Sequence record: SRR20825006_1115
Length of the DNA: 43,096 bases
Strand: one strand, 5' to 3'
Under the pieces are notes generated by a model. It was not told the DNA's origin and did not search any database. It saw only the letters and a program-made list of their open reading frames with translations. The position numbers and the translations under genes are program-made. This document shows, piece by piece, positions 6,501 through 30,098 of the stretch; the stretch's first letter is position 1, and every line of letters begins with the position of its first letter.

Positions 6501-7073
6501 TTAGGAAGCGAATGGCAACGGGTTCACGCCAATCAGCCATTCGTGGATGAAAAGGAAACCGGTATAGAGCGCCGCGCCAATAAAGACTGTCACGATATCT
6601 TTAACGAAGGATTGTTTTGGTGGTTTGACCCAGTCGCCGTCGCGGCGGTTCGCGCCGACCATGGCCAGGATTGTCCACACAAGGAATGTGCCAAACAATA
6701 GCACAGACCGTTGCTCTCCATTTGCGAGCAGGTGCCCGATCGCCCAAAGAAGCACGCCTGTTAGCTGCGGGTGCCGAACAAGGCGGCGAATGTTGCTGGG
6801 GGCGCGGCTTGAAAAAAATAGAATGAAACCAAAAAGTACCAGAAGTGGCGTGACGTGAAATGCCCATTGCGGCGGCGCATAGAGGATGGTGGGCTCCGTC
6901 ATAGTCCAACCGAAATATACCAAGGCGAGCGACCCAATAATGACGAGCGAAAAAAGTCCCCGGTAGGCATTTTTTCCCAAACGGGCCATGAGGCTCGCCC
7001 GTGTCATCAAGCCGAACACAGGTAGAAGGTGGACCGCAACAAATACCAAAAGTCCTGCGAGCAGTATTATCAT
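6501..7073 (-). CDS. NnrU family membrane protein
   Basis: GL.VF..VH, RHPQL.GV.LWA..HLLANG and several TM segments. Confidence 0.85.
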   Translation of the reverse strand: MIILLAGLLVFVAVHLLPVFGLMTRASLMARLGKNAYRGLFSLVIIGSLALVYFGWTMTEPTILYAPPQWAFHVTPLLVLFGFILFFSSRAPSNIRRLVRHPQLTGVLLWAIGHLLANGEQRSVLLFGTFLVWTILAMVGANRRDGDWVKPPKQSFVKDIVTVFIGAALYTGFLFIHEWLIGVNPLPFAS

Positions 7074-8090: not shown

Positions 8091-8723
8091 ATGTCAAAAC
8101 TCGATTTTGCCGCGCTTTTATGTTCGCGGCTTTGCCATGATCTGGTGAGCCCCGTGGGCGCCATCAACAATGGCCTCGAAATTTTGGCTGACGAAACAGA
8201 TGTGTCCATGCGGGATGCTGTACTTGACCTTATCGAAAAGTCTACCCGTCAAACCAGTCACAAACTACAGTTCTTCAGGCTTGCATTTGGCGCTGCGGGC
8301 GGTTTTTCTGCGCAACTTGACGTGCGGGAATGTGAGAAGGCCATGCGCGCGTTCCTCGATGGTAGCCGTGTGACCCTTGAGTGGGACGTAGCACCTGAAA
8401 GTGCCAACAAGGCTCAAGTGAAGATTTTGCTCAATCTTGGCCTTGTGGTCTCGGAAGCAATGATCCGCGGTGGCACAGTGTTGATGCGGATGCGGAACGA
8501 GGAAGGCCAGACGGTGATCTCCATTCGCGGCGAAGGTGCACGTGTTATCGTGCAAAACGAAGTGAAGTTGGCGCTCGCGGGTACGCTGAGTGAGGATGAC
8601 CTGGAGCCCCGCGCGGCACCTGCATACCTTGCGCAAGCCGTTGCGGCTGAAATCGGAGGTAAAATAAACCAGGTTGAGGTTAGCGACACGCTTGCACACA
8701 TCGAAGCAATATTGCCGAACTGA
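8091..8723 (+). CDS. chpT: Histidine phosphotransferase ChpT (CckA-ChpT-CtrA relay)
   Basis: LLCSRLCHDLVSPVGAINNGLE and LQFFRLAFGAAG, with a degenerate CA domain; near ctrA and upstream of cheA. Confidence 0.93.
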   Translation: MSKLDFAALLCSRLCHDLVSPVGAINNGLEILADETDVSMRDAVLDLIEKSTRQTSHKLQFFRLAFGAAGGFSAQLDVRECEKAMRAFLDGSRVTLEWDVAPESANKAQVKILLNLGLVVSEAMIRGGTVLMRMRNEEGQTVISIRGEGARVIVQNEVKLALAGTLSEDDLEPRAAPAYLAQAVAAEIGGKINQVEVSDTLAHIEAILPN

Positions 8724-8768: not shown

Positions 8769-8857
8769 TCTTTTTGGCCAAGGTGCAAGTTGCGATCTGT
8801 TTCTTATCGGGGCACACTCCCATTATATGCTGACCCTATCCGCCGGGATGATTGAAT

Positions 8858-11800
8858 ATGGATGATCTGTTAAACGAATTTCTGACCGAGACTGGTGAAA
8901 GCATCGACGTGGTTGACGTCGAGCTGGTCAAGCTTGAGCAAGACCCTAACAACAAGGAAGTTCTCGATAACATCTTCCGCCTTGTTCACACCATCAAGGG
9001 TACCTGTGGTTTCCTTGGTTTACCTCGGTTGGAATCGGTTGCGCACGCATCCGAGAACGTTCTGGGCAAGTTCAGGGATGGCGAGCTGCAAGTTTCCGAG
9101 CATGCGGTGACGGTCATTCTTGAGAGCCTTGACCGGATTAAGGAGATTCTGGCGGGCCTTGAGGCGACGGAAGAGGAGCCAGAAGGCGACGATACGGACC
9201 TGATCGCACGGCTGGATGCCATCGCGGAAGGGGCGCTTGCCGCACCAGACCCGGAGCCTGACACGGTTGAGGGTGAGATTGTTGACGTGAACCTCGGCCG
9301 TGCGCTGAAGCCGGGTGAGGTATCGCTTGAGGAACTGGAAGCTGCTTTTGCAAATGCCCCCGGCCCTGAAGAAATGGCTGAAGAAGAGCCTGTGGCCGCA
9401 CCAACATCTAGCGGCGCAGGTAAAACCTTATTCGATAGAGTGGGCGGTGAAGATACCTTGGCTGTTGCCGCGCACCTGATTGCCCAGCGGCTTGGGACCG
9501 ATGGCAATCTGTCCAAGTTTTTTGCGAATACAGCGTCTGATTTGCGTAAGGGCCAATTCATGGGCCTGATGATGGCGATCTTCAAGGACGACCTTGATGC
9601 TGCAGATAATGTTGGCCGCCAGCTTGTTTCTGTCTCCGGTTTTACGGACCAGCATTTTGACAAACTGGTCGAGATGATCAAAACCGTGCTTGTTGAATGC
9701 CAGGTGGACGGCGACACGGCTGACGAAGCGGCAATGAGCTTTGAACTGGTGCGTGACGCTGTTGTGAGCGCGGCAAAAGAAATTGCCAAAGCGGAAACCA
9801 ACAAGGCGGGCACGGCGTCTTCCGCTCGGACGCAAGCTGCTGGGCCATCTGCTGCTGCACCAACCGAACAGAAGCGTACTTCCCAATCTATCCGCGTGAG
9901 TGTTGATCTGTTGGAAGACCTGATGAATATGGTCTCTGAGCTGGTGTTGACCCGGAACCAGCTTCTGCAAATTACCCGGAATATGGATAATACCGAGCTT
10001 GGAGTGCCGCTGCAGCGTCTGAGCCAGTGCACCACAGAGCTTCAGGAAAATGTGATGAAAACGCGCATGCAGCCGATTGGCAACGCATGGGCGAAACTGC
10101 CACGCATTGTTCGCGACCTTACGGTAGAACTTGATAAGAAGATCGACCTTGAGATGCTTGGCGCTGACACCGAGCTTGACCGCCAAGTGCTGGAACTTAT
10201 CAAAGACCCGCTTACCCACATGGTCAGAAACTCTGCCGACCACGGCATTGAGACACCAGCTGAGCGGATGGCGGTTGGCAAGTCTGAAAATGGTACGATT
10301 GTGCTGAACGCCTATCACGAAGGCGGGCATATCATTATCGAAATCAAGGATGATGGCCGGGGCATTCCTGTGGCCAAGCTTAGCAAAAAAATTCTTGAGA
10401 AGAAGTTGGCAACCGAGGCTGAGCTTGCGGACATGTCCGACGGCCAGATTCAGAAGTTTATTTTCCACCCTGGGTTTTCGACAGCCGAGAAAATCACCAG
10501 CGTCTCCGGGCGTGGTGTGGGTATGGATGTGGTGCGCTCAAATATCGAGAAGATCGGTGGCACCATCGATATGGTCTCCATCGAGGGCAAAGGCTCCACC
10601 TTCCAGATCAAGATCCCACTCACACTGGCGATCGTTGCTGGCCTGATTGTTAAAGCACAAGACGAACGTTATGCGATCCCGCAAATCAGCGTGCTTGAAC
10701 TGGTGCGGGCGTCGCAAAACTCGGAACACAAGATTGAGACCATCAAGGATACACCTGTCCTGAGGCTCCGGAACCGTTTGCTGCCACTGGTGTACCTGAA
10801 CGAGGTTCTTGGCTTCATGGACCGCGACGAGATCGATGCACGTGAAGATGTTGACGACTTTATCGTCGTTACTCAGGTTGGTGCGTTCACCTTCGGGGTC
10901 GTGGTGGATCAGGTGTTCGATACGGAAGAGATTGTGGTCAAGCCGGTTGCACCGATTTTGAAAGACCTCGAAATCTACTCAGGTAATACGATCCTGGGTG
11001 ATGGGAGTGTGATCATGATCCTCGATCCGAACGGCATCGCTGCCCGCGCCAATTCGGGCGTTGGCGACCACGAACGTGAAGAAGAAGATGCGCGCGAGCA
11101 GGTGCGCCGAACCGCTGAGAGCGAGAAAGAAAGTCTTCTTGTCTTCCGTGCGGGTGGCAAAAATCCAAAAGCAGTTCCGCTTGCACTTGTTGCGCGCCTT
11201 GAGGAAATCGATGTCGATACCATCGAGCTCTCGGACGGTCGCCATATGGTGCAATACCGTGGCGCGTTGATGCCTCTCATCAAGGCGCATCCCGATATGG
11301 AACTTCGCAGCGAGGGGCGCCAACCTGTACTCGTATTCACAGACCGCGAATACACCATGGGCCTGGCTGTCGATGATATCCTTGATATCGTTGAGGAAGA
11401 ACTGAACATCAAGCTCGCGTCTGAGAAGCAAGGCGTTGTGGGCTCTGCCATCATCAGTGGTAAGGCCTCTGAGGTTATTGATGTTTCATACTATCTCAAC
11501 CTAGCGTTTGCTGATTGGCTGAGGTCTCGCAACGTAACGGATGACACAGTGCCGTCTGCAGGAGCCAGCGTTCTTTTGATCGATGATAGTGACTTCTTCC
11601 GCAATATGCTGAAGCCGGTTCTGACGGTGGCGGGGTATCACGTGAAGGCGGTTTCAAGCGCTGCCACTGCACTGAAGCTGATGGAAGACGGTTATACATA
11701 CGACCTGATTGTCTCGGATATCGAAATGCCGGATATGAACGGCTTCGATTTTGCTGCGGCCATTCGGGACGGTAGCAAATGGGAAAACACACCGCTTGTT

Positions 11801-11941
11801 GCTCTGTCGGCTCTAGCAACAGAGCGAGATGTACAGAGAGGGCACGCTGCCGGTTTCGATGACTATATCGCAAAATTTGATAAGCCAACGCTGCTGAGAA
11901 GCCTTGCCCAACAGCTTAAGATCAAAGGAGACGCGGCATGA
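8858..11941 (+). CDS. cheA: Hybrid chemotaxis histidine kinase CheA (Hpt, globin-like insert, dimerisation, HATPase, two CheW domains, REC)
   Basis: Hpt IFRLVHTIKG; SIRVSVDLLE; PLTHMVRNSADHGIE; DDGRG; PGFSTA; SGRGVGMDVV; two CheW-like domains; C-terminal REC (IDDS...SDIEMP). ATG 8858 (MDDLLNEF) preferred over TTG 8852. Confidence 0.97.
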   Translation: MDDLLNEFLTETGESIDVVDVELVKLEQDPNNKEVLDNIFRLVHTIKGTCGFLGLPRLESVAHASENVLGKFRDGELQVSEHAVTVILESLDRIKEILAGLEATEEEPEGDDTDLIARLDAIAEGALAAPDPEPDTVEGEIVDVNLGRALKPGEVSLEELEAAFANAPGPEEMAEEEPVAAPTSSGAGKTLFDRVGGEDTLAVAAHLIAQRLGTDGNLSKFFANTASDLRKGQFMGLMMAIFKDDLDAADNVGRQLVSVSGFTDQHFDKLVEMIKTVLVECQVDGDTADEAAMSFELVRDAVVSAAKEIAKAETNKAGTASSARTQAAGPSAAAPTEQKRTSQSIRVSVDLLEDLMNMVSELVLTRNQLLQITRNMDNTELGVPLQRLSQCTTELQENVMKTRMQPIGNAWAKLPRIVRDLTVELDKKIDLEMLGADTELDRQVLELIKDPLTHMVRNSADHGIETPAERMAVGKSENGTIVLNAYHEGGHIIIEIKDDGRGIPVAKLSKKILEKKLATEAELADMSDGQIQKFIFHPGFSTAEKITSVSGRGVGMDVVRSNIEKIGGTIDMVSIEGKGSTFQIKIPLTLAIVAGLIVKAQDERYAIPQISVLELVRASQNSEHKIETIKDTPVLRLRNRLLPLVYLNEVLGFMDRDEIDAREDVDDFIVVTQVGAFTFGVVVDQVFDTEEIVVKPVAPILKDLEIYSGNTILGDGSVIMILDPNGIAARANSGVGDHEREEEDAREQVRRTAESEKESLLVFRAGGKNPKAVPLALVARLEEIDVDTIELSDGRHMVQYRGALMPLIKAHPDMELRSEGRQPVLVFTDREYTMGLAVDDILDIVEEELNIKLASEKQGVVGSAIISGKASEVIDVSYYLNLAFADWLRSRNVTDDTVPSAGASVLLIDDSDFFRNMLKPVLTVAGYHVKAVSSAATALKLMEDGYTYDLIVSDIEMPDMNGFDFAAAIRDGSKWENTPLVALSALATERDVQRGHAAGFDDYIAKFDKPTLLRSLAQQLKIKGDAA

Positions 11942-12423
11942 ACAACCTTGTTGTCCGTGATGACTTAAGCCTTGTGGCAACCGGCAAGCAGGATTTTGTG
12001 ACTGTGGTTCTTGAGGGGCAAACCCTTGGAATACCGGTTTTGAGCGTGCATGACGTGCTGAACCCGCAACAAATAACCAAGATACCACTTGCGCCAGCGT
12101 GGGTCTCAGGTGTGTTGAATTTGCGCGGCAAGATCGTGACAGCCATCGACCTCAGGCAACGCCTTGGCCTGCCACCACTGGAAGCTGGTAAACAGAGCAT
12201 GTCTGTGGTGGTTGAGCATAAAGAGGAACCCTATAGCCTGCAGATCGACACCGTAGGCGAGGTTCTGTCACTTGACGACGCAGACTTTGAAAGAAACCCG
12301 GTAACGCTTGATCAGCGCTGGCGGGAAGTGAGCCGGGGGATTTATAGGCTCGAAAACAAACTTTTGCCCATTCTGGACGTGGACCGACTTCTTGCCTTTG
12401 AAAGCAGTGGAAAAGCCGCGTAA
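11938..12423 (+). CDS. cheW: Chemotaxis coupling protein CheW
   Basis: IPLAP..V.GVLNLRGKIVTAIDLR, D.VGEV, LDV..L; overlaps the cheA stop. Confidence 0.96.
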   Translation: MNNLVVRDDLSLVATGKQDFVTVVLEGQTLGIPVLSVHDVLNPQQITKIPLAPAWVSGVLNLRGKIVTAIDLRQRLGLPPLEAGKQSMSVVVEHKEEPYSLQIDTVGEVLSLDDADFERNPVTLDQRWREVSRGIYRLENKLLPILDVDRLLAFESSGKAA

Positions 12424-12487: not shown

Positions 12488-12853
12488 ATGAAGTTATGTC
12501 TTGTGGTTGACGATTCAAAGGTGATCCGGAAGGTCGCGCGGCGCATTCTGGAAGAGCTTAATTTTGACATCGAAGAAGCCGTAGATGGACAGGACGCCCT
12601 GGACGCATGTGACCGTAACATGCCGGACGTTGTGCTTTTGGACTGGAACATGCCGGTTATGGACGGGCTTGAATTCCTGAAGGCCATCCGGGCCCGCGAA
12701 GGCGTTGAGCAGCCGATTGTGGTTTTCTGTACCACTGAAAATGATATGGCGCACATTCGTACCGCCATCGAGGCTGGTGCAAACGAATATATCATGAAGC
12801 CGTTTGACCGTGAGATCATTGAGGCGAAATTCTCCCAAGTTGGGTTGATGTAA
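12488..12853 (+). CDS. cheY: Chemotaxis response regulator CheY
   Basis: Single REC domain (VVDDS, LLDWNMP, CTTE, KPF) within the che operon. Confidence 0.95.
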   Translation: MKLCLVVDDSKVIRKVARRILEELNFDIEEAVDGQDALDACDRNMPDVVLLDWNMPVMDGLEFLKAIRAREGVEQPIVVFCTTENDMAHIRTAIEAGANEYIMKPFDREIIEAKFSQVGLM

Positions 12854-12869
12854 CATAAGGGTACCCCGC

Positions 12870-14159
12870 GTGAATTCTGCGGTTTCAAAAACAACAGCTG
12901 TGCCGGGAAGCGGTGGTCCCTATCGGGTAATGGTGGTGGACGATAGTGCCATTATCCGGGGCTTTTTGTGCCGCTATTTGTCTGAAGATTCTGAAATTGA
13001 TGTTGTGACAACCGCCAATAATGGCGCAGTTGCGCTCAGGCAGTTGCAGGCAAATGATATAGAGGTTGTTGTGCTTGATATCGAGATGCCAGAGATGGAC
13101 GGCCTGACAGCGCTGCCTCAGATGATCAAGATGGTGCCGGACCTTCAGGTTGTGATGGCCTCCACACTGACCCGCAAGAATGCGGAGGTCAGCCTACGCT
13201 CCCTTCAGATGGGGGCAGTGGATTATGTGCCGAAGCCTGAGACAGCGCGTTCCGTTAACGCAAATATCGATTTCCGCCGCGAGCTTGTGGATAAGGTGAA
13301 AGCCTGGGCCTCGCGCCGCCGTAAAAAACGCGGTGAACAATTGCCGGCAAACGCGAGCGACCTTGGCGCGCCAACGGCTGGGACGACAGCTGCAGGGCTT
13401 GCAGCACGTGAAGTCACAGCGCGCAGGCCCGCCGCGCCCACGCCGGGAAGCGGGTTTGTAACGGCACGCAGGCCAGCCGCACCGGTCTCTATCAGTGGTG
13501 CGCGGGTTTCTACTGCACCAGCGACGCCAGCGGTGCCGCTTGAGAAGCAAATCAGCCTGCGCACGGGGTCATTCCGGCGACCAAAAGTTCTTGCTATTGG
13601 CTCATCAACGGGTGGTCCGCAGGCTCTGATGAAGTTTTTTGCGGGATTCAAACGCGCGCCAGACGTGCCGGTGTTGATCACGCAGCATATGCCAGCGACC
13701 TTCACCGCCATTTTGGCTGAACATCTCGCGCAGGCGACGGGCTGGAAAACGCAGGAAGCCACAGACGGCCAGTTCCTTACTGCGGGTGAAATGTATGTTG
13801 CTCCGGGTGGACGCCACATGGAAGTCACTGTTGTTGACGGCAAGGCCTGCATTCGATTGACCGATGAACCGCCTGAGAATTTTTGCCGCCCGGCTGTGGA
13901 CCCGTTGTTTCGCAGCTTGCCAGCGGTATATGGCGAAAATGTTTTGGGCATCATCCTTACCGGGATGGGGCACGACGGTCTGAAGGGTGCGAGAGAATTG
14001 ACACGAACGGGGGGTACGCTGCTGGCACAAGATGAAGCGAGCAGTGTGGTATGGGGTATGCCTGGAGCGGTCGCGACCGCAGGGCTATGTACGGAGGTAC
14101 TTCCTGTTGATAAATTGGGTGAGGCAGCAGCCACGCGGTTGCAAGGAGGAATCAGATGA
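12870..14159 (+). CDS. cheB: Chemotaxis methylesterase CheB (REC plus methylesterase)
   Basis: REC (VVDDS, LDIEMP) and catalytic motifs GSSTGGP, ITQHM, LTGMGHDG, VVWGMP; GTG start. Confidence 0.96.
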   Translation: MNSAVSKTTAVPGSGGPYRVMVVDDSAIIRGFLCRYLSEDSEIDVVTTANNGAVALRQLQANDIEVVVLDIEMPEMDGLTALPQMIKMVPDLQVVMASTLTRKNAEVSLRSLQMGAVDYVPKPETARSVNANIDFRRELVDKVKAWASRRRKKRGEQLPANASDLGAPTAGTTAAGLAAREVTARRPAAPTPGSGFVTARRPAAPVSISGARVSTAPATPAVPLEKQISLRTGSFRRPKVLAIGSSTGGPQALMKFFAGFKRAPDVPVLITQHMPATFTAILAEHLAQATGWKTQEATDGQFLTAGEMYVAPGGRHMEVTVVDGKACIRLTDEPPENFCRPAVDPLFRSLPAVYGENVLGIILTGMGHDGLKGARELTRTGGTLLAQDEASSVVWGMPGAVATAGLCTEVLPVDKLGEAAATRLQGGIR

Positions 14160-14998
14160 AAACTGAAGATTTTGAATTCCTCGCAGGCATGCTCAAAGAG
14201 CGCTCTGGCCTGATGCTCACGCCGGATAAAGTCTATCTTCTTGAAAGCCGGTTGACGCCGCTTGCTCGCAAGCGCGGGCTTGATACGCTTGATGCGCTTG
14301 TGCAGAAGTTGAGAATGAGCCGGGATGACGGCCTGATCCGCGACGTGACCGAAGCAATGACCACGAACGAGTCGTTCTTCTTTCGGGACAACACACCGTT
14401 TGACCTGTTCAAAAACCATGTGTTGCCAGCCATGGAAAAGGGTCGTGCATCACAGAAGCGGCTGCGCATATGGTGTGCTGCCGCATCAACAGGGCAGGAG
14501 CCATACTCGCTTGCGATCCTTCTGCGCGAAAACTGGATGAAATGGCAGGGCTGGAATATAGAGATTGTCGGCACCGACATCTGTACCCAAGTGCTTGAGA
14601 AAGCCAAAGCTGGTACATACAGCCAGTTTGAGGTTCAGCGCGGGCTTCCTATCCAGATGCTGATCAAATATTTCAAGCAGGAAGGCGACACCTGGCGGAT
14701 CAGCGATGACATTCGCAAGATGGTGACCTTCAGGCCATTTAACCTGCTCAGCAACTTTGTTGGAATGGGTTCATTTGACGTGATTTATTGCCGCAACGTG
14801 TTGATCTATTTTGACCAGCCTACCAAGAAGGACGTTCTTGAGCGCATGCGCAAATGCCTTGCGAGCGACGGTACGCTCTTCCTAGGTGCCGCTGAGACAG
14901 TGCTGGGCATAACAGACAGCTTCCGCCCGGTGCGCGGCCAGCGCGGCATGTATGTGCCAAGTGACGGCACAGCAGAAAAAGCCATGGGCCTTGGCTAG
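14156..14998 (+). CDS. cheR: Chemotaxis methyltransferase CheR
   Basis: TTNESFFFRD, RIWCAAASTGQEPYS, GTDI, FDVIYCRNVLIYFD, LGAAE. Confidence 0.97.
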   Translation: MKTEDFEFLAGMLKERSGLMLTPDKVYLLESRLTPLARKRGLDTLDALVQKLRMSRDDGLIRDVTEAMTTNESFFFRDNTPFDLFKNHVLPAMEKGRASQKRLRIWCAAASTGQEPYSLAILLRENWMKWQGWNIEIVGTDICTQVLEKAKAGTYSQFEVQRGLPIQMLIKYFKQEGDTWRISDDIRKMVTFRPFNLLSNFVGMGSFDVIYCRNVLIYFDQPTKKDVLERMRKCLASDGTLFLGAAETVLGITDSFRPVRGQRGMYVPSDGTAEKAMGLG

Positions 14999-20371: not shown

Positions 20372-22669
20372 TTATCTTTTGCTGCTGCTGCCTTCGCGCA
20401 TGATGGTTTCAACATTCACCGGGAAGGAAGATTGTTCAAGAATGTTGAGTTGGCCTGTGAAGGCGCTGGCGCCCAGCGCATCGTCAAACAAGCGGATAGC
20501 GTCATACTTGAGGCTTGAGGGCAGGGGGTTGCTAGTTCTCAGCGTCAGGTCAAATTTCTGCCCGCGGATAAGGCCGTCAAGCTGAACAGCACCGAGCACA
20601 GTGAACTGTACTTCAAGAATGAAGCGTTGCAGCTCGTCTTTCTCGTCGTCCTGATCCTGATATTGACCACCGTGCTGTCGGTCCGGGTCAACGTGTGGGC
20701 CATGGCCAAACAGCAGGGCAATAAGCGGCATGTCCGGGTTCCTGAGGTCAAGGGGTAAAAGCACCTGCCGCCACTCGCCAACAGGTTCAGTGGCCATGCC
20801 CATAAGGCGGGTGATATCGCCCTTGAGTGCGTCTAATAGCGCTCGGCTATGCTCGGCCAATGCTTTTTCTGCTGCGCCACCAAGCCAGCCTTCGGGGCTG
20901 TTACGGCCAGCGGCGGATAGGAAAAACATCAGGCTGTTGGTCAGCTTGCCGCCACCGTCAGCTGAGCGCGCTGCCAGTTGCGCTGCTGCTGCAGGATCAG
21001 AGCCGCTCAGGAACGTCATGCTTTGGTGCAGCGCGGGCCATGCCTGGTGGCTGAGGGCTGCGAGCGCGCCAGCTTCTGGAACCATCGCTGCAGTCGGCGC
21101 AATCGGGGTGCCAGAATAGGGCATGGACAGCGGCAAAGGCGCAGTTTCCTGCGCGGGCAGCGGAAACTGAAGCACGTCCCCTACAGCCGGGCGCACAGCG
21201 TTCGGCAGCGTCACGGTAACCATACCGCGCGTGGTATCCAGCCTCAGATCCGAGCGTGGCCCGTCAGGGCTCATGAAGGCGCGCACGGTATGAACCGCCT
21301 TCACGGTGGCACTCTGAAGTGCCTTATTTTCCATACCTTGTTCCGGAAACGAAACAATAATGTTTTTAGGGATACCCATGCCCGGTGGTTGTAGCCGCGC
21401 TTTATAACCGGGCGCGGTGTTTACCGCTTCAGGAGCGGCTGGCGCGAGAGCCGGGGTGGTGATGCGAACCTGCTCTCCGTTCAGGTTTTCTGCGGCTTTC
21501 AGGCTGACAATCAAGGTGCCCTGAGAGGTTTCAACACGCGCGAGCGGGGAGGTTGGGTCTGCCAGTTTGGCGATCTGTAACGGCAGGGTTTTTGCGTTGT
21601 CCGGCGCGAGCGGGTACACGGTGAGCACAGTGGCAACCTGGCTGGGCGGTACACGGCTGATGGCCGGGTCCATTAACTGGATAACCTTGGCGCTACCTTC
21701 TGGCGTGAAGGCTTGGATGGGTGCACTTAACCCAGTGGAATCAAAGCCTTGCTGTGGCGCTTGTAACGATGTCAGCTCTGACTTCGGAATAAAATGAGCT
21801 CCGTCAGGGCGTTCACCACGGGGTGGAACCTGGGTGCTGGCTGACTGATAAAGCGGCACTTTGGGGGCCTGCCCCTGCTGGGCTGCAATGAGTGTTGCAA
21901 GGTCTGAGCTGTTGGACCGGGCACCAATTTTATCCGGATTATCGGCGATAAGTGTGGCGGAAGTGTTGCTATAAGTGGGGCGCGACTGTGGCGTAATTGA
22001 CTGATTTTCCGAAACGGGCTTGTTTTCCAACATGTTAGGGAGGCTTGACGCTCGTGCACCGATCAAATTCGCCAGGGTTTCTGCGCCGTCCGCCTGCACC
22101 ACCTGTGGCGTCGATTGTGCCACACCTTGTGCCACACTTTGTTGCGGGCGCCTGCCGCTATAAGATGGGCCTGTCGTCGGGGCTTCTGTGCGGGGAGGCT
22201 GCCCGTCACCCTCGGGCGCATGGATCGAGATAACAACAAGCGCGAGCCGGATCGGCGGGTCGATCACCTGATTGTTTTTCATCAAAAGATCGGCAGATAC
22301 TTTTTTGCCCGCTTCAACAATCTCAAGCTCAACATCATCACCCGCTCGCAAACCGGCATCGGGGCGCAGCGCATAGGTGGCCCGTTCGGTCACGATAATG
22401 GGCCTGCCTTCAAGGTCGATTTTGGCGATCTCGCGTTTCAGCCGCTCGCCTATCTCAATGTGGGCAGCGCTGGCGGAAATGGAAACCGCCGGGTCGCGGG
22501 AATGCAGGGCGTCCGCGCGGTCGTTTTTTGCGTGCCGTTCACCACCATGTTCGCGGGCCTGGGTTTCCGAACGCTGGGGGTCTTTGGATACACCAGATGC
22601 TTTGTCGGTGGCACGGGCCACCGGGTCCACAACTTTTGGCATTGGTGCACCGCCAGTTATATCGCTCAT
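20372..22669 (-). CDS. Uncharacterised 765-aa flagellar-locus protein (Pro/Ala/Gln-rich, FliK-like C-terminus)
   Basis: Long ORF 46 nt downstream of flhG on the same strand, with a GAGG RBS. C-terminal RFILEVQF..LGAVQLDGL....FDL.LRT. Confidence 0.75.
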   Translation of the reverse strand: MSDITGGAPMPKVVDPVARATDKASGVSKDPQRSETQAREHGGERHAKNDRADALHSRDPAVSISASAAHIEIGERLKREIAKIDLEGRPIIVTERATYALRPDAGLRAGDDVELEIVEAGKKVSADLLMKNNQVIDPPIRLALVVISIHAPEGDGQPPRTEAPTTGPSYSGRRPQQSVAQGVAQSTPQVVQADGAETLANLIGARASSLPNMLENKPVSENQSITPQSRPTYSNTSATLIADNPDKIGARSNSSDLATLIAAQQGQAPKVPLYQSASTQVPPRGERPDGAHFIPKSELTSLQAPQQGFDSTGLSAPIQAFTPEGSAKVIQLMDPAISRVPPSQVATVLTVYPLAPDNAKTLPLQIAKLADPTSPLARVETSQGTLIVSLKAAENLNGEQVRITTPALAPAAPEAVNTAPGYKARLQPPGMGIPKNIIVSFPEQGMENKALQSATVKAVHTVRAFMSPDGPRSDLRLDTTRGMVTVTLPNAVRPAVGDVLQFPLPAQETAPLPLSMPYSGTPIAPTAAMVPEAGALAALSHQAWPALHQSMTFLSGSDPAAAAQLAARSADGGGKLTNSLMFFLSAAGRNSPEGWLGGAAEKALAEHSRALLDALKGDITRLMGMATEPVGEWRQVLLPLDLRNPDMPLIALLFGHGPHVDPDRQHGGQYQDQDDEKDELQRFILEVQFTVLGAVQLDGLIRGQKFDLTLRTSNPLPSSLKYDAIRLFDDALGASAFTGQLNILEQSSFPVNVETIMREGSSSKR

Positions 22670-29417: not shown

Positions 29418-30098
29418 TCACCCCTCAGTCGTATCCTGTGTTGTTGTTTCTGTATCATCTGGCGCTTTGGCAGCATTTAGTGCTTCAACTTCATCAGGCA
29501 TCACAAAGCGCTGAACTGCGTCCTCAATCTGGCGCACGATGGTTGCGTGGTTGCGGTCAGAGCCGCCATCCGGCCATTCCACCTTGCAGTCTTGCATGCC
29601 CATTGTTTCTTCGCCGATCAGTACGATATCGCCGGGGAAACCTGTGGCGGCCTTGAGGTTCTCAATTCGCTCGTTGATGCTGTCGACCAGGTCTTCGCAC
29701 ACCCGCACAACAAGGCGCGGTTCCTTCTGCATGGTGGCGAGGCAGTCTTCAATGAAGGCTTCAATCTCTGCCATCGGGTGCGTGCGGATAAGCGCTGGCG
29801 CCAGTTTGCTTGAGATCGCATATGCCAGTTGCACCATTTCCTGCTTCAACGTGCTTTCAAGCTGGTTGCGCTGTGAAAACAGTGCGCGTGTGGCTTGCTC
29901 AAGCTCGCCCAAAGCATCTTTGGTGGCGGCTTCAATTTCAGACAGGGCTTGACGACGGCCTTCTTCAAGGCCGGTTTGATAGGCTTCGGTTTTGATACGG
30001 TCCGCGTCCAGACGCACGCGGTCCAGTTCCTCGTCAAAACGGCTTTTAGCGCCGCCGTCGAAGGCTGTATCAAATTTGTATTTTACCGGTTCAGCCAT
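29418..30098 (-). CDS. fliH: FliH (FlbE)-like flagellar export protein
   Basis: KYKFDT.FD N-terminus, A...G..EG repeat, EPRLVVRV, DC.VEW.DGG; between fliG and fliN. Confidence 0.88.
   Translation of the reverse strand: MAEPVKYKFDTAFDGGAKSRFDEELDRVRLDADRIKTEAYQTGLEEGRRQALSEIEAATKDALGELEQATRALFSQRNQLESTLKQEMVQLAYAISSKLAPALIRTHPMAEIEAFIEDCLATMQKEPRLVVRVCEDLVDSINERIENLKAATGFPGDIVLIGEETMGMQDCKVEWPDGGSDRNHATIVRQIEDAVQRFVMPDEVEALNAAKAPDDTETTTQDTTEG

Follow-up and report, generated by a model that had tools for sequence, protein, structure and literature searches.

What occupies the linker between the phosphotransfer (P1) and dimerisation (P3) domains of an alphaproteobacterial CheA, the slot that holds the P2 domain in E. 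coli CheA? The question is raised by the cheA gene in a 43,096-nucleotide stretch of DNA from the sequence record SRR20825006_1115 (the whole stretch is called the window below). This gene, from a Kordiimonas-like marine bacterium, encodes a hybrid CheA-REC kinase whose nearest database relatives are proteins of Kordiimonas sp., K. marina and K. aquimaris. A first-pass annotation made from the letters of the sequence had suggested that a folded segment of about 115 amino acids (aa), flanked by linkers and standing in the position of P2, resembles a truncated haemoglobin (trHb) that has lost canonical haem binding. We confirm that residues 190–309 of this CheA have a group-1 (trHbN/T1) truncated-haemoglobin fold and form a discrete domain between disordered linkers; the span first pointed out, 9425–9769, corresponds to residues 192–306 and lies inside it.

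The identification of the fold is drawn from sequence, profile and structure comparisons. The excised segment (window 9395–9799) matches the Pfam family Bac_globin (PF01152) from end to end (model positions 1–118 of 121) with E = 0.044; the Pfam check that had been proposed is thus positive in extent and negative in score, the 14.4 bits obtained lying below the cut-off of the family. All 17 matches of a phmmer search of the segment against the PDB are trHbs (best 7e-5). A profile was then made from an alignment, A1, that unites the window segment with its orthologues in 38 further genomes of the GTDB order that includes Kordiimonas (n = 39), and the 23 PDB matches of this profile are likewise trHbs without exception (best 5.4e-16). 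When the degenerate set was compared by hhalign with 12 canonical trHbs embedded in CheAs of other Alphaproteobacteria, a probability of 99.5% and an E-value of 3.9e-22 were obtained. The AlphaFold2 model of the domain, computed on A1, consists of helices only, with a mean predicted local distance difference test (pLDDT) score of 96.2 and a predicted template modelling score of 0.88. In a Foldseek search of the PDB its top rows are the group-1 trHbs 1dly, 6cii, 3aq5, 1dlw, 1idr and 1s56, with template modelling (TM) scores of 0.74–0.78, a probability of 1.00 and modest E-values of about 1e-3. Among the nearest cluster representatives to the domain, each of the ten that were scanned carries Bac_globin. 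The similarity to trHbs is far beyond chance. Pfam finds no Protoglobin match in the window segment, and a Bac_globin family search of the whole genome lists only two free trHbs and not the CheA domain.

The same data speak against other identities for the segment. A Pfam scan of the whole protein finds no family in residues 100–343, and no P2 or CheY-binding family is matched at E up to 1 by either the whole protein or the segment; P2 was rejected as the identity of residues 190–309 on this ground and because the model is all-helical. The position in the P2 slot, between the Hpt and H-kinase_dim domains, is as first described. A disordered segment or another fold had also been considered, and the PDB profile search returned trHbs only, with a confident helical model. 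Although the AlphaFold2 model of the full-length kinase has a mean pLDDT of 60 and a low overall confidence, residues 190–310 reach 78–89 in it and residues 130–188 and 316–355 only 25–47; because of this contrast with the flanks, 190–310 can be regarded as a folded module between flexible linkers.

The residues on which haem binding depends in trHbs were mapped by an HMMER alignment to THB1 and a MAFFT alignment with the canonical CheA-embedded globins. In the alignments, Tyr B10 is replaced by Ala211, Gln E7 by Arg232, Gln E11 by Phe236, and the Gly-Gly-Pro (GGP) hinge of the EF region by Lys-Asp-Asp at 245–247. The changes at B10, E11 and GGP agree with those read by the first-pass annotation; for the proximal His F8 it was right about the loss and wrong about the replacement, since neither alignment has a His there and the residue is Arg256 (MAFFT) or Leu or a gap (HMMER), not Val. 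The loss is general in the order: the F8 column holds Arg, Ala, Lys, Phe or Glu and a His in 0 of the 39 order-level sequences, B10 is Ala, Ser or His, and any His in residues 244–263 is missing from all 53 database homologues. The pre-F loop is 3 to 7 columns shorter than the canonical one, according to the alignment used. The canonical CheA globins share 23 near-invariant positions (at least 11 of 12 sequences), and only seven of them are identical in the window domain, namely Leu193, Gly198, Gly199, Asp217, Phe224, His268 and Phe269. These seven belong to the fold, whereas those of the 23 that lie in the pocket and the pre-F region are replaced or deleted. The Gly198–Gly199 pair of the AB region is retained across the order (39/39 and 38/39), while the EF GGP is replaced. 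His208 of helix B, three residues before B10, is nearly invariant (38/39 in A1 and 51/53 in the database homologues). Judged by the replaced ligands, it is quite probable that the window domain no longer binds haem.

Two free trHbs with His F8 are encoded on contig 1 of the same genome (L001, 2864910–2865248, minus strand; L002, 3361315–3361665, plus strand), and the organism has therefore retained trHbs of the haem type. With its hydrophobic leader at the N-terminus, L001 is possibly an exported protein.

Outside the Kordiimonas order, the same kinase carries globins of the haem type. The A1 profile matched 61 of 400 other alphaproteobacterial genomes (62 of 401 with the genome of the window), and in 27 of the 400 the match lies within an open frame of at least 800 aa. 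Twenty of the matched loci were retrieved and 19 scanned with Pfam; the unscanned one, L062, has the CheA P1 and P3 signatures. Fifteen of the 19 encode kinases with the arrangement Hpt-Bac_globin-Hkinase_dim-HATPase_c-CheW-REC, Bac_globin being above the cut-off, and the others are two globin-PAS chemoreceptors, one CheW-globin fusion and one 597-aa protein with a C-terminal globin. Phe-Tyr at B9–B10, GGP and His F8 are kept in 12 of the 15 CheA loci, whose Bac_globin scores are 47–72 bits (122.7 bits for one with two globins); in the other three (L057, L059 and L061) His F8 is gone. The question posed by the first-pass annotation, whether any orthologues keep His F8 and Tyr B10, is thus answered differently on the two levels: in the order none of the 39 sequences has His at F8, and outside it most of the scanned CheA loci keep both residues.

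These canonical-globin kinases have the P1 sequence and the insertion site in common with the window kinase, and their operons are orthologous. The gene for a ChpT-like histidine phosphotransferase (HPTransfase) precedes cheA at 12 of 16 class-level CheA-type loci and at 12 of 12 order-level loci, and cheW adjoins cheA in all of them. Because orthologous CheA-REC kinases hold a canonical trHb at the same site, the window domain appears to be a degenerate descendant and not a fresh invention. The earlier idea that a globin fold had been recruited into the chemotaxis kinase therefore needs to be divided: the fold within CheA and the loss of the ligands are borne out, but a one-off recruitment is contradicted by the canonical trHb found at this site in many families. 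The Kordiimonas domain is the degenerate member of a larger architecture that seems not to have been described.

The canonical CheA globin of L047 is 61–70% identical to free trHbs of many Proteobacteria, and the wider searches made with such globins were dominated by free proteins. A locus search with a four-sequence alignment gave 80 loci, nearly all of them with free or tandem trHbs (82 of 83 open reading frames, ORFs); the only CheA is L065, on the query's own contig. A tblastn search of plasmids gave 31 records, the annotated ones being free “group 1 truncated hemoglobin”, and no CheA. Among 49 long database proteins found with the L047 globin, 18 are CheA-type and 23 are of the methyl-accepting chemotaxis protein (MCP) type. 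PF01152 is precomputed on the 18 CheA-type proteins and on none of the 53 Kordiimonas-type homologues.

Several of these proteins deserve to be recorded separately. L046:2854–6453 (+) encodes a CheA-REC with two canonical globins, one in the P2 slot and the second (residues 709–824) in the CheW/P5 region. A CheW-globin protein with a canonical truncated globin is encoded by a 372-aa frame at L064:1510–2625 (+), and globin-PAS-MCP receptors with a canonical truncated globin are found at L051:3965–6829 (+) and L063:1983–3032 (+). One of the globin-MCP matches is named McpH of Phenylobacterium zucineum.

Within the order, the profile search matched 52 of 101 genomes, about 44 of them within an open frame of at least 750 aa. 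Matches were found in 21/21 genomes of family f1, 11/12 of f4, 2/2 of f6, 4/9 of f2 and 10/20 of f8, where some of the matches are free trHbs. The 24 order-level sequences included in a maximum-likelihood tree (63 domains, 123 columns, quick search) form one clade with a long stem (SH-aLRT 96), in which f8 is sister to the rest. The f8 domains (L039, L040, L041 and L043) retain a pre-F loop of full length, with Phe at F8 and a further His at B10, within an HLxHNR-type motif (4/39); judged by sequence, they resemble an intermediate step in the degeneration. L061, which also has no F8 His, nests in the canonical CheA-globin clade with a support of 99, and the loss of the ligand must for this reason have happened more than once.

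Loss of the ligands was not followed by decay of the domain. Pairs of the 51 full-length homologues share on average an identity of 0.66 over the domain, where a single one of 117 columns is a gap column; the means are 0.15 and 0.32 for the two flanking linkers, which are rich in gaps, 0.97 for P1 and 0.71 for REC. The ratio of nonsynonymous to synonymous substitution rates (dN/dS) is 0.10–0.30 in the six pairs with dS below 1.5, a rough estimate because only these 6 of 153 pairs fall below that value. By these sequence measures the domain is under purifying selection. New lineage-specific residues are strongly conserved, including His208, Lys233 (53/53) and Arg256 (51/53), which argues for a retained functional module and not a decaying relic. 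The otherwise variable linkers contain one more conserved element, the motif at residues 149–176, which has a mean identity of 0.79 and zero gap columns in the same homologues. A short helix (159–167) is predicted in it at low confidence by the full-length model, and it recurs in the haem-type CheAs L045 and L048 and not in most others. Its role could be that of a docking peptide.

The fold and its homology, the replaced ligand residues, the conservation of the domain and the orthologous operon are matters of observation, and to them we add an explanation that we regard as probable on balance: the trHb was inherited from a haem-type CheA globin, lost its ligands and has been kept as a ligand-independent regulatory or docking module. 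According to this scenario, an ancestral CheA would have carried a haem-type trHb in its P1–P3 linker. The Kordiimonas order would then have lost His F8, Tyr B10, Gln E7 and E11 and the GGP hinge, and most of its lineages also a part of the pre-F loop, leaving a domain that most likely binds no haem and senses neither O2 nor nitric oxide (NO). The compact helical module would have been kept, gap-free, between the two disordered linkers, and with it the contact by which the ancestral sensor may have tuned P1 delivery or phosphotransfer. The partners in this contact could be P1, P4, CheY, CheB, the kinase's own REC domain or the neighbouring ChpT-like protein, and the module would now serve as a ligand-independent regulatory or docking element. 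For the particular step that the module persists through a retained ancestral contact and acts without a gas ligand, we would put the chances at just short of even.

A number of points weigh against this explanation. As a single sequence, the segment does not reach the 21 bits of the Bac_globin cut-off. The loss of haem is inferred from the missing ligands only; His208 could, from its place in the sequence, serve as a haem or metal ligand, and one of the 39 sequences (L030) has a His one column past the F8 column. Synonymous divergence is near saturation, with the few usable pairs mentioned above. The docking partners are candidates only. Complex predictions of the operon CheY with the globin-like domain, for which the supplied alignments were unused, scored 0.18 and 0.29 where the mark is 0.34, and they weigh in neither direction. 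The domain tree, a quick search on few columns, leaves the attachment of the degenerate clade unsettled, and the genome's own free trHb, L002, joins this clade weakly (86). For this reason it is mainly from shared position and synteny that we argue for a haem globin within CheA as the ancestor.

The conserved residues lying outside the fold set permit another view, in which the domain is still a sensor, with a remodelled pocket that receives a fatty acid, another hydrophobic molecule, or a metal held by His208 and acidic residues. His208, Arg213, Lys233 and Arg256 and the near-invariant Asp201, Glu282 and Asp291 are strongly conserved new residues of this lineage that do not determine the fold. 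Non-haem precedents among the globin sensors are RsbR, the kinases of Bacillus anthracis, the phycobiliproteins and photoglobin, as treated in the available text of two papers (PMC8717448, PMC7475203). The described non-haem sensor globins are, however, all of the 3-on-3 type, the shorter pre-F loop and Phe E11 may fill the cavity and not reshape it, and the operon has no conspicuous ligand-related genes; a non-haem ligand is in our opinion unlikely. Haem itself might still be bound in a non-canonical way, through His208 or through the B10 His of the sister lineage f8, so that the domain would remain a gas or redox sensor. His208 is near-invariant and on helix B points approximately towards the pocket, the B10 His of f8 is a second candidate, and two trHb features are kept, the Phe-Phe of the CD region and the His/Gln-Phe motif of helix G. 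On the other side stand the absence of His from the F8 column in all 39 sequences and the replacement or deletion of the GGP hinge and of the invariant pre-F Tyr, Gly and Leu that carry the F helix. No trHb is known to us in which haem stays bound once the proximal His is gone, and we consider this possibility quite unlikely.

The domain could also be a functional substitute for P2 that docks CheY, CheB or both, or the kinase's own REC, and speeds phosphotransfer with no sensing or regulatory role. It fills exactly the P1–P3 slot of P2 with flexible linkers on both sides in a protein that has no P2 match, CheY is well conserved across the order (78–83% identity), and the text of the CheA survey available to us (Berry et al. 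2023, PMC10782961) has P2 missing from the majority of CheAs. Nevertheless, the docking contact is hypothetical, P2 has an alpha/beta fold to which this helical one bears no relation, and the haem-type ancestor at this site was presumably a sensor and not a docking domain; a pure P2 substitute is to our mind very improbable. An inert spacer, a decaying relic with no function of its own, would account for the disappearance of the residues that define the canonical function, and the sensor seems to be easily lost, as His F8 is missing outside the order too, in L057, L059, L061 and also in L062 (the locus without a Pfam scan), at least once independently. Such a relic can hardly be reconciled with a domain that is kept essentially without indels in every CheA-size match of the order, is far more conserved than its linkers (0.66 against 0.15–0.32) at a dN/dS of 0.10–0.30, and has a confident compact fold unlike that of a decaying segment; we hold it to be extremely improbable. 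A broader formulation seems to us somewhat unlikely: that a whole lineage of alphaproteobacterial flagellar CheAs has a built-in gas or redox sensor in the form of a haem-type trHb, contrary to the textbook view of a CheA without an input domain, and that in the Kordiimonas order this sensor was converted into a haem-free module with a conserved surface of its own (His208, Lys233, Arg256) that serves a new ligand or replaces P2. We prefer to consider the domain as an inherited trHb kept for ligand-independent regulation or docking.

The kinase belongs to a chemotaxis operon in which the HPTransfase gene is followed by cheA, cheW, cheY, cheB and cheR, as assigned by Pfam (Table 1). Next to the operon lie FliI, FliJ, FlhA, FlhF, a MinD/ParA-like ATPase, a sigma-54 activator and MotA, and this CheA is on account of these neighbours a flagellar chemotaxis CheA-REC hybrid. 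Its translation opens with TTG at 8852, and the true start is probably the ATG at 8858, two codons inside the ORF, because database orthologues begin there; the protein would then have 1027 aa. The 53 database homologues, some of them named Kordiimonas, are 830–1051 aa long. With Hpt, dimerisation, HATPase_c, double CheW and C-terminal REC domains in a cheA-cheW-cheY-cheB-cheR operon, the kinase is F5-like, a double CheW and REC being typical of CheA class F5 in the survey text at hand (Berry et al. 2023, PMC10782961). For the second CheW-like block only approximate limits can be given, as they follow a beta-rich, high-pLDDT stretch of the full-length model.

Two minus-strand ORFs over the segment (8986..10035 and 9428..10468) were put down to chance, as mechanical ORFs on the strand facing a gene with strong support. 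Pfam reveals no conspicuous ligand-related genes in the che operon. Two genes upstream of it, a gene for an NnrU-family membrane protein is located at 6501–7073 (−); the NnrU family is tied to nitric-oxide and denitrification responses. Two ORFs of the flagellar region, 20372–22669 (−; 765 aa) and 29418–30098 (−; 226 aa), match no Pfam family at E ≤ 1e-5.

Table 1. Genes of the che operon and domains of the CheA-REC kinase, in positions of the window
Feature	Position	Strand	Evidence
HPTransfase gene, ChpT-like histidine phosphotransferase, immediately 5' of cheA	8091..8723	+	Pfam PF10090, E 3.7e-28
cheA, hybrid CheA-REC kinase	8852..11941	+	ORF translation, 1029 aa from TTG 8852; Pfam domains; database homologues
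P1/Hpt phosphotransfer domain, residues 5–98	8864..9145	+	Pfam PF01627, E 6.6e-16
Conserved linker motif GRxLKPGEVSLEELEAAFxxAPGP, residues 149–176	9296..9379	+	Homologue alignment
Degenerate group-1 truncated-haemoglobin domain, residues 190–309	9419..9778	+	Profile, hhalign, AlphaFold2, Foldseek
P3 dimerisation domain (H-kinase_dim), residues 344–404	9881..10063	+	Pfam PF02895, E 8.6e-15
P4 HATPase_c kinase domain, residues 452–591	10205..10624	+	Pfam PF02518, E 8.1e-18
P5: CheW-like, residues 597–732, and second CheW-like block, residues ~757–890	10640..11521	+	Pfam PF01584, E 1.8e-29, 2 stretches
C-terminal receiver (REC), residues 907–1014	11570..11893	+	Pfam PF00072, E 8e-20
cheW	11938..12423	+	Pfam PF01584, E 4e-34
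cheY	12488..12853	+	Pfam PF00072, E 1.8e-30
cheB	12870..14159	+	Pfam CheB_methylest plus REC
cheR	14156..14998	+	Pfam CheR and CheR_N

Compared with the group-1 trHbs of known structure (THB1, 4xdi/6cii; Tetrahymena, 3aq5; M. tuberculosis HbN, 1idr; Paramecium, 1dlw), the window domain has the same 2-on-2 fold and length and clear homology, and it keeps the AB Gly-Gly, the CD Phe-Phe and the G-helix His-Phe motif. It differs from these free proteins in being embedded in a 1029-aa kinase, in the replaced haem ligands and in the shorter pre-F loop, and its binding of haem is unlikely. Close counterparts are the haem-type CheA trHbs (L045–L058, and P0136–P0143 with a precomputed PF01152), which are known only from databases and share the kinase family, the site and the operon; they keep Phe-Tyr, GGP and His F8 and score 47–72 bits, whereas the window domain has lost these residues and scores 14.4 bits. 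In CheA itself, P2 sits in the same position on flexible linkers and is unrelated to the window domain in fold and sequence.

Other signalling proteins also make use of globins. In the globin-coupled sensors (HemAT, globin-coupled histidine kinases and diguanylate cyclases) a globin is likewise joined to chemotaxis or two-component signalling domains; according to the available text of the 2020 globin review (PMC7475203), this is an N-terminal 3-on-3 globin of the S family with haem. The window globin, in contrast, is a 2-on-2 T1 globin in the middle of CheA, without the haem ligands and without a Protoglobin match. The non-haem sensor globins RsbR, the B. anthracis sporulation kinases and photoglobin, as far as the texts at hand describe them, resemble it in that a globin without haem persists in a signalling protein, but they are 3-on-3 and N-terminal, and the window domain is internal and of the T family; none of them is among the 50 matches listed by Foldseek. 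A Bac_globin-PAS-MCP receptor of Corallococcus coralloides has been described in silico in the text available of PMC6194562. Receptors of this kind bring a truncated globin into a chemosensory pathway with the haem ligands kept and on the receptor, while in the window it is on the kinase and the ligands are lost. Relatives of the canonical CheA globin are themselves found in globin-MCP receptors (23 of the 49 matches; loci L051 and L063).

A further group of nearest representatives (P0056, P0057, P0059–P0067; P0132–P0134) is made up of proteins in which between 2 and 11 truncated-globin units stand in tandem; one of them, of 1882 aa, has 11 matched stretches. They are probably eukaryotic multi-unit T1 globins, because one relative is named Perkinsus chesapeaki.

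The trHb fold family is well known, but this kind of globin inside CheA appears to be undescribed, and so does the keeping of a truncated-family globin without haem ligands in a signalling protein. Full-text searches found no literature on a globin-bearing CheA. The survey of CheA names P2/CheY-binding, REC and CheC/CheX among the auxiliary domains, with “globin” absent from its main text, and in the portion consulted it treats CheA as a histidine kinase without a sensor domain that is reliant on receptors (Berry et al. 2023, PMC10782961). The word “truncated” is likewise absent from the accessible text of a 2026 aerotaxis review. The portion consulted of the 2020 globin review (PMC7475203) gives T2 and T3 as the only bacterial chimeric T globins and makes no mention of CheA; the corresponding portion of the photoglobin paper (PMC8717448) counts RsbR, phycocyanin and photoglobin as non-haem families, none of them truncated, and a non-haem T globin has no member in either text as consulted. 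The opinion of the first-pass annotation that no globin-containing CheA had been described agrees with the literature searched; the databases, on the other hand, already hold CheAs bearing PF01152. Since this Pfam match is precomputed on CheA proteins, the architecture can be found in databases even if it is undescribed in print. The public names of the 1027-aa CheA-REC kinases (“chemotaxis protein CheW”, “CheA”, “response regulator”, “hybrid sensor histidine kinase/response regulator”) never mention a globin.

With a globin in its P1–P3 linker, canonical in many Alphaproteobacteria and deprived of the haem ligands in the Kordiimonas order, CheA could itself be an input point. For the globin field, this would add a bacterial chimeric T1 globin and a candidate non-haem truncated globin; if the broader formulation given above were true, the truncated family would thereby gain its first non-haem member. 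The degenerate form represents a “natural experiment”, in which the kinase and the operon are the same, the sensor chemistry is removed and the fold is kept, and together with the canonical form it would, on that broader formulation, make a natural on/off pair for studying linker-embedded control of CheA. The degenerate form occurs in named Kordiimonas species and may be culturable, while the named canonical forms come from uncultured metagenome-assembled genomes.

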